This document shows positions 43,001 to 57,397 of a DNA stretch of 64,000 nt, one piece after another. The stretch's first letter is position 1, and each line of letters opens with the position of its first letter. Below the pieces are notes generated by a model. It saw nothing but the letters and a program-made list of their open reading frames with translations, did no database searches and was not told the DNA's origin. The translations under genes were made by a program, and so were the position numbers. The stretch is from a virus: positions 1 through 64,000 of IMG/VR virus record IMGVR_UViG_3300029309_000008, one strand, 5' to 3'.

Positions 43001-43928
43001 AGCTATGACATGGGATGACAGGTATATGCGTTTATTCTTAACCAAGTTAGATTCAAAGGTAAAATCAAGCATTACGATTTGGACAGGAGATGATTCTCTA
43101 GCTCCTAATAACAGTATGAGAATCAAAGACTTAGACTTTATCTATAGAAATGATTTAGGAGTTGATTCTGTTGTAAACCCTCAAGACCCTACGTATTTTG
43201 ATTTAGCTTCTTGGACGACAGCTTATAGTCCTGTAATTAAGGGGTGGGTATCTTTTTACTCTTTCACGCCTAACTATTATGTAAGTCATCAGAACTATTT
43301 CTCTTCTGGTCTTAATCCTCTTGTAAGTGGGACAAGAAAAGGTAGTACTGCAGGAATATGGAATCACTTACTTGGTAGTAACCAAACATTCCAAGTATTC
43401 TATGGTTCTAGGCACTCGTGGATTATTGAAACTGTCGCTAAAACTAATTATCAAAGTAAGCTATATGAAGACTTTAGCTATAGGCTAAATGTTAGAAGAT
43501 ATGTGAATGAGTATGATTACCATTACTTCGATGAAAACTTCGATAAGATGGTTCTGTACAATGACAGAGAGTCTTCAGGATTATTAAGACTAGTGACTCA
43601 AGAGCCTAATAGTTTGAAACAACTTATTGATTTCCCTAAGTTCACTTCTACAGGTATTGACATTATAGCCACAAATCAGGATTATACTTGGTCAGTTAAC
43701 TACTTTTTCGATAATTTAAAAGAAAATCATACACAACCTATTTGGACTAATGCTCTAAATAATGTAGATAAGGATTTAAACAATGAAGCATTCAACTACA
43801 ACCCTTCATTCAAAAACCATATTAGAGGTCAATACTTACTAATAAGAATGGAGCAGAGTAAAGAATCAAGACTTAAGTTTATATTTGAACACTTTATATC
43901 AGACTCATTAATGTACGATGCCTACTAA
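37047..43928 (+). CDS. muzzle / tail stabilisation protein (P22 gp10-like), 2293 aa
   Basis: GMNKD...YT.ALNA...NE.SN; GYMRDEV.PFGI; IRHFKFPD; FGGDTFI; YGGTQH; WT..YSP....W.SFYSF.P. Confidence 0.8.
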   Translation: MAKSNKRIDRQIGAPKQGMNKDVHPASLDEKTYTHALNANYEGQDGDIVNLQNEESNILCSKFKPGFKVVGHQIDITGERTYFFLVDDSTTPPRSEIGFIEDLGKQINFTDTVIKCGCSIEAVLSDGLENQVQSETCTYTTLIADYECPNGLTPNHCLNFNINYPISSVLKDDKLGKILYFTDDLNPRRRIELDNISQYYKTPVVCADDADACINCGLMDMLPETPPLCIDVEGTVIGGDVDHGVYAFFAGYCDGEGNMVRDYSASTNTFSVKDPNKDIYTQPELDIPTNFSIKLNINNLDTQFEFYQVAVVAIKEVNGAKSYYSLGVFPTSNQEVLFSGLETLPQENRLGLFEITQTVPEYIKAKFVTNTNNTLYFGDLEGRPDPNLQPVVNFMGQFAKWRTFMAEEDLYSTSYGTGNFKGYMRDEVVPFGIRFVTKKGYKTPIYPLIARVADATSDLYFDDISSGSIPSHQADPTACIAAIKSSINLPTAASTRKWIKDVYSTLRYGNENCNDEERVYKWQYYNTAVEQRRDIDDCATVSSTTVKRDIEKVCSQEENTILGTSVGIPNDNTTALRLDFTEDGTVPEFETPPCDPTTDPTCPCPVGIEVEGFFTGFADYVQNNQSVFEDIANDSTGLYGATQKLLASYFILDNYKEGGIHALDCCDVGFDSSVCGTPTKISEFIEVLGLETRAPCAKIVYEECSYYDRPPESDICFNYAIDPTNGDNKNINIQCAYDVKGDNTQRCENDCGDGAKNYLFTYEFFVGVRKKKDKYNLVFDRTTPVSGGSSCNNSSSLPLSFNEYDSAFTTHITPDFPDIEIVENDGTTSDEDARYISKHINSQEAQVKQLMDKDFIAGYGYGEVDPRQNTNPGSRRKKKFCAKAKNDIYLGLPENAGPFDNSDNVSGPGIFFNGGSAGFPLVDGVDYGRVHNNAVWYKLAVGSNNKIYFAVSRQNDFPSDNDKKDCLWYPEIARVSFFVNCDGDIFENFTLCANPSEKNLNSTKVDLDGPDGVIELDIKAALDSGAFPGGISEIYVAVDTPVVRAEQRPGQANSCFYPGGLGDKEHTDKAGGSGQNIYYYSSGTNCFVVKAYNQAIDYIEAYLAPTQLILEKTCTFKSSCTLSVYDTLKCDPFFRSEGIFSYWESTNIYPDNDFLYNSKNQITNIANLDLGSADANNEFNNIYVTGGELNDKANFACKPIRHFKFPDVNISPMFGADTFFNAQPVPFVPSKIYPIGFHIDNNIINGFLDLAVDNTLITQEFRDSITNYEIFRGDVRLNKSIISKGVLYDMYKHVDEDTNDTSYFSNFPYNDLSDNKLLYRKENRKKFIEHPFKNDLKSNNRFTFHSPNTSFDRDLLPFEMYVETDFVGYSRGAFAKVEDHPKYTVLAPRAYRIARFLAAAETTLDFLTNLSSALIQVGLAGNVGTTTNVLQPVAWVAFGLYTGQALINLVPQGKQNTSKWLTIFRTLGNDRNFANYYSSVGFYNGMYIPPSQEGDKLRGLREKLYIDNGRYRVDEIDEDSNIIINNFNRESSVYLSLGVEKDSSGNVRHNFNLDKSPAIRNYDNSRFIASDKGCFKGAVSREYEAPISSPYVSLKRFLPGQYGGISSVSWFDTAYCGDLTKTNSCEAAFGGDTFISRMYLKRKFSLFSTPALIGKNGTGDNVPYEYSIYRNVGYPRFFLDYLMDGEDDVTIYGNIPNLRSNFEFDCTNSKGLYMKPPSKFYLFYYGIPGFLVESRINLNFRYGRNNSDKFFYPGTRDYLGWTQENYVSVREGEEFSYNENYSKNNDISDAFVLPDNYDPAIWNAQYDNYDRVIFSLPDNNESNRIDNFRYFLSNNYHDFGNKYGRLVDLANIESDKVLVRFENGASIFNSYNVLRGQNQSDPNYAVNPQENRTILKSKPSEFFRTELGYGGTQHRALVSCQLGHFWTDAKRGRVYQLSPNGTSWDEISNKGMKNWFRENLPFRIKTQFKDIPDDMLDNTMDGLGIAMTWDDRYMRLFLTKLDSKVKSSITIWTGDDSLAPNNSMRIKDLDFIYRNDLGVDSVVNPQDPTYFDLASWTTAYSPVIKGWVSFYSFTPNYYVSHQNYFSSGLNPLVSGTRKGSTAGIWNHLLGSNQTFQVFYGSRHSWIIETVAKTNYQSKLYEDFSYRLNVRRYVNEYDYHYFDENFDKMVLYNDRESSGLLRLVTQEPNSLKQLIDFPKFTSTGIDIIATNQDYTWSVNYFFDNLKENHTQPIWTNALNNVDKDLNNEAFNYNPSFKNHIRGQYLLIRMEQSKESRLKFIFEHFISDSLMYDAY

Positions 43929-56500: not shown

Positions 56501-57397
56501 CTAAAAGAAGACCTATTAGCTAGAGGTATACCTCAAGAGCAAATTGACCAAATTGCTTTTAACACACAGGAAAGACCTATGATAGGTCCTGAATACGGAG
56601 GCGAAGGTGTCAGAAGCGATGACCCTAAGTATATGGGGTACCAAAACTCTGGTTTTAGCGTAGACTTGGCAGAAGATAAACAAGGTATGGTACCTTATGG
56701 TTATATGGAGGAAACACCACAACAGGAATTTGATTTTGAAATTCCTAATTTGGGAGCTTCTCTTAGTGTGCCAGCATTAGACTTTACCAGTGATTTAGTC
56801 AGACCTAGTATAGGCATAGCTACAACTCCTTTGCAACAACAAGCTAGAGTAGACCTCCAGCCTGTAAAATATAGTGAAGAACAAGCCCTTAGAGAGGGTG
56901 CGGCTGCTACTAATTTGGCTATGCGACAGTCTGCTAATATGGGAGGACCAGAAGCTAGGACTGCTGCAGTAGGCTCACAAAGTGTTAGAAGCCAGTATGC
57001 TAATGAGGCTACTCTACAAAGACAGGAAAAGGATGCGGAATCAGTATTTAAAACTGATTTAGCAGAGGCACAGCTTAACAGCCCAATTGATAGTGCTAAC
57101 TTAACTAGACAGTATCAGTACTCCTCTAATGCACTCAAAGCTGTTGATAATGAGATATCAGCCATTGCTGATTTTGAAAAAGCAGTACTTGACAGAGCAG
57201 ACCAAAAAGAAAGGTTCGCTAATACATTAGCAGTTATGGGTCAATTTGCTCCTAATTTCATGGTAACTCCTTCGGGTCCAGTATTCAACCCAGGAACACA
57301 GACAGATATACTGTATCCTTTTGCTAGCAATATAGCTCAACAAGTTCTTGCATCATCAGGACAACCTATATCATTCGAGCAAGCATCTGGAAACTAA
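53543..57397 (+). CDS. modular virion cargo protein (1284 aa) with conserved AE.E..E...G.SH..GG...SD domain and three basic modules
   Basis: NAELEKNE...GKSHAQGGE...RILSD; YPSAYANAW..WYKKKGGTW; FKPHWMYDP; GG linkers. Confidence 0.75.
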   Translation: MFRKKVIRNQEVPVDPNAYQSTNPAYQYIPAGIDMMATEGEPATDVFGNPRPLVFKRRALGSFDSQEDFNKYHAIVRNRQNQMSTSGKIIDEIQQALVDAAYVLTNPLSTYKDAHSMEGLRRMRGEIEQNGGYIRNQNAVGTSLPGYGGFAGPGLPANIDADSDGIPDAYDSLPDSTGGSFVFDTPTTTTESTTSPMVPFVPDTVESLPNMRQFNPYQNVGFGLSTALTSDSAGERRAGAVLTGLAGASSAFDLGSNLLLGRGANKEITDMMAQADRTAGLDFQAPIMDQTEGVESALSRTGFAQDGATMYKKGGKSKKKNKPNNPSLWSRAIAAAKKKFDVYPSAYANAWAVQWYKKKGGTWRKAQDGFVYEEGGQITIEEQLSGRNVTGIARPELSGTEINAELEKNEYVEYPEEQKISKVIGKSHAQGGEKMNLEPGTRILSDNIKVGAEYKKALSDLFDMKNIKANDTVAKVMEKYLQKSGITAIQKRQEEVLKGLKENMSVKDEATRRTNEQFYADKIIKTQAELNEKQKEQTLVFNVLFQMQEARKAKNEQGDPSAKNIRKRPPLEQEFVPYEGPPPVEEETAQPVEVALQNGGTIDILMDGTKIYASPEAIEIVRRDALEGGYGDFMEYLSENVTGRYADGGGIPERYKKKGFRKVGVKKRAPSGSKHKWEVLARKKVGGKTRYKIVKGGFRGMKDFTQHKDKKRQKSFWDRMGGKNSAKTKDPFSPLYWHKRFGTWEDGGKLDAKKNFKPHWMYDPNNPNKAEFAEKYEDHVRLDKLGYVYEKPKIEDFEYGGMSRYQSANQVEIIVDADGNRYIPQFRDRETGQVVYADAQGNYVVPGQMTTENSTFNANARGIYRAGQYGYDELDDVGKSKLDESSGATADYVAEQYKKTGSVQGLTVNVFGASSKTPVSPKSQIEIFESLGYEQIGSNKNRYRVPDLANDPTGQTFIEVLVGTSEASDAANYGLPKLRTSDQITKLKEDLLARGIPQEQIDQIAFNTQERPMIGPEYGGEGVRSDDPKYMGYQNSGFSVDLAEDKQGMVPYGYMEETPQQEFDFEIPNLGASLSVPALDFTSDLVRPSIGIATTPLQQQARVDLQPVKYSEEQALREGAAATNLAMRQSANMGGPEARTAAVGSQSVRSQYANEATLQRQEKDAESVFKTDLAEAQLNSPIDSANLTRQYQYSSNALKAVDNEISAIADFEKAVLDRADQKERFANTLAVMGQFAPNFMVTPSGPVFNPGTQTDILYPFASNIAQQVLASSGQPISFEQASGN

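Follow-up and report, generated by a model that had tools for sequence, protein, structure and literature searches.

What precedes the DNA during injection is little known in crAss-like and related Bacteroidota phages. Bacteroides phage crAss001 carries the cargo proteins C1 (gp45) and C2 (gp46) in its capsid and tail, and these are considered the first to be ejected (Bayfield et al., 2023, PMC10172136; PDB 7QOG; statements on this and the other papers cited here refer to the accessible parts of their text). Here, we analyzed the first 64 kb (the window, 64,000 nucleotides) of an 89,756-bp linear IMG/VR virus record (IMGVR_UViG_3300029309_000008; CheckV completeness 59%). Three consecutive giant genes of the window, P1, P2 and P3, lie, like those of C1 and C2, directly past the muzzle gene of a tail with rings 1 and 2. 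Their products differ from C1 and C2 in being 1.2 to 2.6 times longer and in having many more modules, and a short peptide ending in Gly-Gly (GG), hereafter the seam, marks the joints between these modules. Selection acts on the seam at the protein level, its occurrence is specific to genes past the muzzle-position gene, and it is a site of cassette insertion, deletion and replacement. P1–P3 may well be positional equivalents of C1 and C2, serving a distant phage of the crAss-like, Cellulophaga phage phi4:1-like type as modular cargo or ejection proteins of the virion, with the seam as an uncut hinge or handle; to this proposal we give about even credence.

Giant multi-domain proteins delivered together with DNA by phages and conjugative elements have been described as polyvalent proteins, and zincin-like peptidase modules were proposed to process them (Iyer et al., 2017, PMC5512222). 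Such proteins combine two to fifteen unrelated domains, and P1–P3 probably belong to their class; in P1–P3, separate segments had separate family matches, modules were present or absent independently of each other, and some occurred as stand-alone proteins. P3 relatives carry ART-PolyVal, YkuD and glucosaminidase domains, as polyvalent proteins do, whereas the window's own proteins matched no PolyVal Pfam model tested. The words "glycine" and "linker" are absent from the accessible text of the polyvalent-protein paper, and hence no junction peptide is described there (PMC5512222). A related proposal, on crAss-like "polyproteins", concerns the zincin protein gp65 of Cellulophaga phage phi14:2: neighboring virion proteins, one of them with a zincin-like protease domain, form a single chain in some phages and are "likely cleaved" (Drobysheva et al., bioRxiv 10.1101/2020.03.07.982082). 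That proposal regards an RNA-polymerase block and, in its accessible text, names no cleavage site; in our record, no giant open reading frame (ORF) contains DFDxD, a motif of virion RNA polymerases of the phi14:2 type. The ideas of injected multi-domain proteins, and of a polyprotein with an embedded zincin that may process it, are therefore already published (PMC5512222; bioRxiv 2020.03.07.982082). The seam motif, its positional specificity and its role as a cassette border were not found in the literature searched.

Short conserved peptides in other systems offer partial parallels. The internal proteins and Alt of phage T4 carry an N-terminal capsid-targeting sequence that is removed by the prohead protease gp21. 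P1–P3 and their relatives similarly have a short leader with a fixed end motif, but here the motif is also internal and repeated, no S77/S78 protease was detected, and neither the major capsid protein nor the portal of the record carries the motif. Cleavage after GG is used by adenovirus AVP, in the polyprotein processing of African swine fever virus (ASFV) by S273R, and by SUMO/ubiquitin proteases. As with AVP and ASFV pS273R, cleavage after GG would free packaged core proteins. However, the AVP consensus, (M/I/L)-x-G-G, has its hydrophobic residue at P4, whereas a logo of 872 sites in homologues has M/Y/F/W at P5 and Q/A/E/K at P4, and no C5 or C48 peptidase was detected. Double-glycine leader systems differ in that their C39 peptidase was not found in the record or in 5 related records. 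A further parallel comes from bacterial polymorphic toxins, in which junction motifs such as VENN (CdiA) and PxxxxDPxGL (Rhs, where it is also a self-cleavage site) form a short conserved peptide at the border of exchanged variable cassettes. In contrast to their single junction before one C-terminal tip, up to 11 serial junctions occur here within one protein, with a sequence unlike those motifs, in what is probably a phage particle protein.

A seam peptide under selection

A preliminary description, made from the letters of this DNA, had reported three giant ORFs punctuated by 25 linker sites. The ORFs are present as claimed and 25 of 25 sites were found at their coordinates (Table 1), 23 of them with GG and two as the GG-less tags KK-VIRNQ and KKG-YTRKQ. 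These sites cover 23 of the 53 GG runs of P1–P3, and the remaining 30 lie within segments. A tag of the RNQ type was said to start all three proteins, and the N-termini of P1, P2 and P3 do carry it (P3 without GG), as no other ORF of the record does; among 33 plus-strand ORFs, leader and tag stand together at the start of these three only.

That GG pairs exceed what composition predicts was correct in part. Over the three proteins, 60 plain GG pairs compare with 40.3 in shuffles, a level reached by 1 of 2000 shuffles, and this modest excess is carried by P1 (25 vs 15.9) and P3 (18 vs 9.9). P2 (17 vs 14.8) shows no excess, and neither does the 2293-residue muzzle-position protein (11 vs 10.5 expected), in which the junction motif is not enriched. 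More specific patterns stand out clearly. The pattern [FYWML]-x-[DENQKSA]-GG occurs 14 times in P1–P3 against 3.33 expected, at a density of 3.14 per thousand residues compared to 0.34 in 40 other ORFs, and GG followed by the tag [YF]xR[NH]Q occurs 8 times against 0.02 expected; none of 2000 shuffles reached either count, and GG plus tag was found 0 times in 14,756 residues of other proteins. Because these patterns were defined after the sites had been seen, a separate logo was built from 872 unique GG contexts in 62 homologues, leaving out the window proteins and four close relatives. In this logo the third residue before GG is Met (6.1-fold enriched), Tyr (2.9-fold), Trp (4.0-fold) or Phe, followed by Q/A/E/K and then by E/D, and Pro is enriched two places past GG. 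The homologue logo reproduces the window pattern, and the specific patterns are beyond chance.

To examine conservation of the seam, 29 P3-type sequences with identities as low as about 25% were aligned. The GG pairs at P3 residues 599-600, 649-650 and 747-748 are invariant in all 29, and the upstream Met or aromatic residue is kept while the flanks diverge. The codons at ten tag sites differ, and conservation therefore acts at the protein level. A DNA-level repeat as the cause of the motif was dropped on the same ground, that codons differ from site to site.

It had also been suggested that modules are swapped as cassettes at GG sites. Comparison of P1 with relatives of 70-95% identity bears this out, with gain and loss of whole modules. 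P0071, which is 95% identical to P1, lacks about 420 residues and reads YAQNGGYSRHQ|EQF at the junction, so that its deletion spans one tag to the next. At MQSGG, P0070 carries an 85-residue insert that is itself GG-flanked and P0072 a different insert; the latter also has a different N-terminal module past its five-residue leader. P0073 lacks P1 residues 1564-1825, from one GG to the next, nine P1 relatives terminate within 5 residues of YEAGG, and the stand-alone protein P0086 begins at the position of P1 FANGG. Breakpoint clusters fell within 10 residues of a junction GG in 7 of 17 cases, and in 6 of 6 of those seen in at least three relatives; of 20,000 sets of randomly placed junctions, only 10 matched breakpoints as well as the real one. 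Eight of the 11 junction GGs of P1 are breakpoints, compared to 0 of its 11 other GGs. The other 10 of 17 clusters lie away from seams, for example at the segment 1150-1320 that is replaced in P0073. Short leaders ending in the motif were found at natural N-termini as well: MPKGG-FTRKQ in P0072, MKMLLTKQEGG in P0086, and a leader ending in YQDGG in P0010-16.

The core of the motif, Met/aromatic-x-x-Gly-Gly, recurs in 66 distant P3 relatives from a collection of 5.8 billion proteins, nearly all of which have about twice the expected GG pairs. Many of them carry DUF5754 (Tlr6F), DUF5872, DUF3597, YkuD, glucosaminidase or ART-PolyVal, with GG motifs between the Pfam matches. A distant relative was present in 39 IMG/VR loci, of which 24 measured at least 15 kb and 19 of these had a ring and muzzle-like anchor. 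In the 19 anchored loci, motif density per thousand residues was 2.77, 9.16 and 1.41 in the first, second and third genes past the muzzle-like gene (positions +1, +2 and +3), but 0.06 upstream and 0.38 further downstream. Sites of the FQ-x-GG type are present in gp040 and gp041 of Cellulophaga phage phi4:1. The RNQ-type tag is real but confined to the clade of the window phage: it occurs 6-8 times in this phage and 0 times in 44,144 residues of cargo-position genes from 16 other loci. Those 16 loci instead have LPKAQ-type leaders, 21 in cargo-position genes and 0 in their other ORFs, and the window phage has 0. In loci L005-L038, the first cargo gene begins MNKLLQH...LPGL-K-MQKGG and the third MKIRITGKGLPKAQ, many cargo-position genes end in ...L..GG-x-[VF]-EFL, and each muzzle-like protein has about two seam-like motifs.

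Judged by gene order and family matches, P1–P3 stand where a crAss-type tail module has its cargo genes. The window order is ring 2, ring 1, the muzzle-position gene, P1, P2, P3 and then four further giant ORFs, and the order of ring genes, muzzle-like gene and cargo-position genes is also present in the 19 IMG/VR loci and in phi4:1. The phi4:1 order from gp043 to gp037 equals that of the window, and its products (homologues gp039-gp043) are annotated as virion proteins from tandem mass spectrometry (MS/MS). By analogy with these homologues, P1–P3 are probably virion proteins too. A megablast search of P1 DNA against cultured phages gave no match, and tblastn of P1, P3 and P0043 gave short module matches only, which leaves phi4:1 and phi17:2 as the sole cultured phages usable as a test system.

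Modules between the seams

The preliminary description placed the linkers at domain boundaries, and this holds for every family match obtained: phrog_23735/14910, phrog_3108, phrog_27331, phrog_36695 and DUF5754 each fall inside one GG-delimited segment. The domain labels proposed at the same time (peptidase, toxins, lysozyme-like) fared differently, as they found no profile support. Pfam searches with the whole proteins and with ten GG-delimited pieces of P1 returned nothing at E < 0.01 except a sub-cut-off DUF5754 match in P3, and in the proteins of the window itself ART-PolyVal, SLT and MPTase-PolyVal found nothing at E <= 1. A sequence search of the PDB with the P1 N-terminal module and with segment 1564-1825 returned nothing meaningful. 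For the same segment SLT had no match, and weak Foldseek rows to a GH23-like chitinase (E 0.37) are a lead only. In the ESM Atlas, P1 1-361 matched unnamed viral clusters only, with LPD23 at 0.87 as a lead, and P1 1090-1361 matched nothing. The putative zincin-like HExxH module that opens P1 is named by its motif and conservation only.

Other modules are better anchored. In more than 100 stand-alone proteins, 91-140 residues long and encoded on contigs of up to 183 kb, the basic module with a Cys pair (GPCG...RCLP) recurs at about 83% identity; going by these sequences, this is unusually high conservation for a phage cargo module. In these proteins it is preceded by a module of the KPSAY type and a GG-less acidic linker; the seam therefore belongs to the cargo proteins and not to the modules. 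The DUF5754 family, to which a basic module of P3 is similar, is known from polinton-like viruses, giant viruses and phages (PMC12220804). Residues 725-795 of P2 are 70% identical to a piece of the P3-type protein P0205, so that a short piece is common to two cargo genes. The C-terminal part of P3 (about 56100-56600) gave weak Foldseek rows to the peptidoglycan-binding domains of OmpA, Pal and MotB (E 0.27, probability 0.72), a lead only, which would suit periplasmic action.

Hinge, handle or processing site

In the reading we favor, each protein would be a string of independently evolving modules, and every joint and most N-terminal ends would carry a seam peptide made of a Met or aromatic residue, two polar residues and Gly-Gly, often followed in this clade by [YFV]-x-R-[NH]-Q. 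The chain would stay in one piece inside the particle. The seam would then be a flexible, recognizable joint, acting as a hinge between beads threaded through portal and tail, as a short handle for a phage-encoded partner, or as both. Clade-specific flavors on one core, the RNQ tag here and LPKAQ-type leaders elsewhere, point to such a co-evolving partner, and the motif-ended leaders at natural N-termini, together with the GG-less linkers of stand-alone modules, argue that the seam is not a mere linker. It would probably not be a protease site during assembly, although cutting after ejection is possible.

The preliminary description had interpreted the linkers as sites of cleavage after GG. 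This was not supported, given that no known GG-specific protease family was detected, that the hydrophobic residue sits at P5, and that crAss001 gp45 is resolved through a GG. The cryo-electron microscopy density of gp45 covers the portal-bound residues 425-552, and every tested region of gp45 was detected in crAss001 virions (PMC10172136). Since the gp45 sequence reads A425-F426-G427-G428, the chain in the mature particle runs through a GG site. Its [FY]-GG sites at 209, 263, 332, 427 and 562 flank two resolved segments, 214-245 and 425-552. The words "cleav", "proteoly" and "protease" occur 0 times in the accessible text of the crAss001 structure paper, where no such motif is mentioned either (PMC10172136). 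In a six-frame profile search of the record, Peptidase_C5, C48, C39, S77 and S78 (the last two as the prohead protease profiles PF03420 and PF04586) and MPTase-PolyVal had no match. Nor were C48, C39 (PF03412) or S78 matched in 5 related records (three with a completeness of 92% or more, one with 83%, and the whole phi4:1 genome), and Pfam found no peptidase family in six +1 genes of related loci. Self-cleavage by N-O shift was rejected, as the position following GG does not regularly hold Ser, Thr or Cys.

Several observations weigh against an uncut chain, or against reading P1–P3 as crAss-type cargo. The record is 59% complete, which makes the absence of a protease weak evidence, for its gene may lie in the missing part. 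Distinct, unrelated HExxH modules occur in 9 of 11 P1-type proteins (P0072 and P0074 being the exceptions), and by position in 7 of 16 +1 genes compared to 0 of 32 +2/+3 genes. The argument from crAss001 uses a variant motif, AFGG/AYGG, with the hydrophobic residue nearer to GG, while in the window it stands three places before GG and a clade-specific RNQ tag is added. The layout also resembles that of a processing system, in that leaders of 5-26 residues end in a fixed motif and tags inside the chain imitate a genuine N-terminus. No binding partner was identified and no structure with a bound seam was found. Comparison of P3 with gp45 by BLASTP gave E >= 1, a profile of 29 P3 relatives missed gp45 among PDB sequences, and Pfam crAss_CARG1 (PF25725) had no match at E <= 1 in the six frames of the record.

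Structure models are of limited help here. The expectation that GG sites sit in disordered linkers agrees with the AlphaFold2 model of P3, of mean predicted local distance difference test (pLDDT) 58.9, in which each of the 6 junctions of the modeled range falls within, or borders on, a stretch of pLDDT < 50. It is weakly informative, as 351 of 985 residues, including a conserved module, are in such stretches too, and the model of P1 955-2154 (mean pLDDT 40.2) says nothing on linkers. LQNGG is drawn as a hairpin turn. Searches with Foldseek and VIA-align gave no match at E <= 0.001 for either model, and, for the P3 model of that confidence, no row for gp45, which in PDB 7QOG has a portal-bound globular domain and a ring-bound helix. 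Reading the motif as a helix C-cap (Schellman) was discarded, as the P3 model has no helix ending at seams.

The strongest competitor holds that P1–P3 are polyproteins cut after Gly-Gly, at head maturation or after ejection, so that effectors and small basic proteins are set free. Cutting would be due to the embedded zincin-like module, to a phage protease not recognized as such or to a protease of the host, and the new N-termini would be formed by the RNQ-type tag. We regard this as unlikely, though by no means negligible. The motif is fixed, short and placed ahead of modules, including natural N-termini past the short leaders, the tags within the chains repeat the genuine N-terminus of P3, several modules also occur in other places as small proteins of their own, and seams in low-confidence stretches are possibly exposed. 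A conserved HEADH module opens P1 and, going by motif and conservation, is the sole protease candidate, with distinct HExxH modules in 9 of 11 P1-type proteins and in 7 of 16 +1 genes; zincin processing of polyvalent proteins (PMC5512222) and crAss-like "polyproteins" (bioRxiv 2020.03.07.982082) have already been proposed. Yet the protease profiles stayed unmatched, the zincin-like module has no Pfam family and is missing from two P1-type proteins, and the gp45 chain is resolved across GG. Two tags lack GG altogether, and some GGs seem to form part of turns in the structure, for example in the ..L..GG-x-[VF]-EFL tails at the C-terminus and in the predicted LQNGG hairpin. A more specific form, in which the seam is the recognition site of an unrecognized maturation or activation system and the zincin-like module or an unknown protease cuts at up to 11 places per protein, is doubtful. 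If true, a changeable payload of effectors and of small, basic, Tlr6F-like proteins would be freed by cutting, inside the head or once the cell is reached, and each product would start with the N-terminal tag of its clade (here Y-x-R-N-Q). Phages would then have their own equivalent of the processing of adenovirus and ASFV core proteins, one that evolved with a different protease.

Less probable still, the seam could be an evolutionary scar, a relic of the leaders and tails of fused genes that is kept by in-frame microhomology exchange and merely tolerated as a flexible joint. Fused and split forms do coexist (P0085 and P0086 stand alone, and P0075-77 end at P1 YEAGG), the deletion junction of P0071 lies within 9 nucleotides common to two RHQ tags, and GG can decay once a module is missing, as in QEMG of P0073. 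A relic is difficult to reconcile with GG and its upstream Met or aromatic residue being (nearly) invariant at about 25-45% identity while flanks diverge, and with the motif persisting at natural N-termini, which call for no joint. Moreover, codons differ between sites, leaving DNA homology too short to drive exchange, and the same modules use other linkers outside this phage group. The notion that Gly-rich proteins simply hold many GG pairs from which look-alikes were picked can draw on the GG count of P2, on the fraction of GG runs listed (23 of 53) and on the post hoc patterns. It is refuted by the GG-plus-tag count that no shuffle and no other ORF approached, by the independent homologue logo, by the positional enrichment in 19 loci and by the coincidence of breakpoints with junctions.

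Whichever reading holds, the seam offers a practical rule to split orphan giant ORFs into testable units, marks where phages swap payload cassettes, and gives a concrete handle on the packing, tail threading and activation of long proteins. Seams that are cut would reveal a new phage maturation system; seams that are not would be a new kind of packaging or threading signal.

Coordinates and neighboring genes

Table 1. Genes, seams and module matches of the tail and cargo region of the window
Feature	Position	Strand	Remarks
Tail ring protein 2 homologue	34942..35640	+	Pfam CrAss_Ring_2 E 2.3e-26, 93.2 bits
Tail ring protein 1 homologue	36091..37047	+	Pfam CrAss_Ring_1 E 1.6e-12; phrog_34036 virion structural protein
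2293-aa muzzle-position gene	37047..43928	+	phrog_37948 (virion structural protein) E 1.5e-286, family of phi4:1 gp042
P1, 2154-aa modular cargo-position protein, 11 junction GGs	43918..50382	+	
P1 leader end and tag IPKGG-FIRNQ	43939..43968	+	GG retained in P0088 at 59% identity
Zincin-like HEADH motif (putative), P1 164-168	44407..44421	+	MVHE-DHVEKG invariant in 3/3 aligned; no Pfam match
Junction AQNGG-YSRHQ	44986..45015	+	Left edge of cassette missing from P0071
Junction KQQGG	46246..46260	+	
Junction FMQGG-TMGRHQ	46270..46302	+	Right edge of cassette missing from P0071
Junction FQDGG	47986..48000	+	
Junction MQSGG	48412..48426	+	Insertion site in P0070 and P0072
Junction AQEGG-YYMNQ	48592..48621	+	Left edge of segment missing from P0073
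phrog_3108 match, P1 segment 1564-1825	48916..49317	+	E 9e-10; lysozyme-like label unconfirmed
Junction FANGG	49378..49392	+	Right edge of segment missing from P0073; P0086 start maps here
Junction GKDGG	49630..49644	+	
Basic Cys-pair module, P1 1910-1986	49645..49875	+	phrog_23735 E 9.7e-11
Junction YEAGG	49888..49902	+	9 relatives terminate here
Junction MLDGG	50161..50175	+	
P2, 1021-aa Gly/Thr/Met-rich cargo-position protein, nearly orphan	50468..53533	+	13 relatives (E <= 0.001) among 1.84e9 representatives
P2 leader end and tag KDGGG-YFKHQ	50507..50536	+	
Junction RQEGG	51407..51421	+	
Single-Gly tag MKKG-YTRKQ	51449..51475	+	
Junction NMQGG	52457..52471	+	
Junction YANGG-YTRNQ	52577..52606	+	
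Junction LRNGG	53261..53275	+	
P3, 1284-aa modular cargo-position protein	53543..57397	+	
P3 N-terminus MFRKK-VIRNQ	53543..53572	+	Tag without GG
Junction EQNGG-YIRNQ	53924..53953	+	
Junction YKKGG	54473..54487	+	Just past it relatives begin with M-ANKPNN
Small PSAYANAW module, P3	54530..54607	+	phrog_27331 E 4.8e-06
Domain common to phi4:1 gp040 (virion protein detected by mass spectrometry)	54653..55219	+	phrog_36695 E 2.2e-21; tblastn 33% identity, E 2e-18
Junction YEEGG	54656..54670	+	Eight relatives (P0010-P0017) have a short leader ending [YF]Q-x-GG before the same domain
Junction LQNGG	55328..55342	+	GG invariant 29/29 aligned; low-confidence predicted turn between two strands
Junction ADGGG	55478..55492	+	GG invariant 29/29
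DUF5754 (Tlr6F)-like basic module, P3 673-720	55559..55702	+	PF19058 E 5.9e-05, 23.5 bits, below the 27.4 cut-off; above cut-off in relatives
Junction WEDGG	55772..55786	+	GG invariant 29/29
Junction FEYGG-MSRYQ	55931..55960	+	

The window also encodes a large terminase, a portal and a capsid protein with a weak Crass_capsid match. A 390-residue ORF (17648-18820) is found between portal and capsid genes, where a scaffold or prohead protease is usually encoded. Its sole family is phrog_34402, of unknown function, and its only other match is a 37%-identical stretch in a Leptolyngbya phage. Upstream of the ring genes, two Cys-rich ORFs (31484-31984 and 31995-32750) precede a collagen-repeat tail-fiber gene (32920-33993; Collagen E 1.4e-12), the product of which has a Cys/Ser-rich N-terminus.

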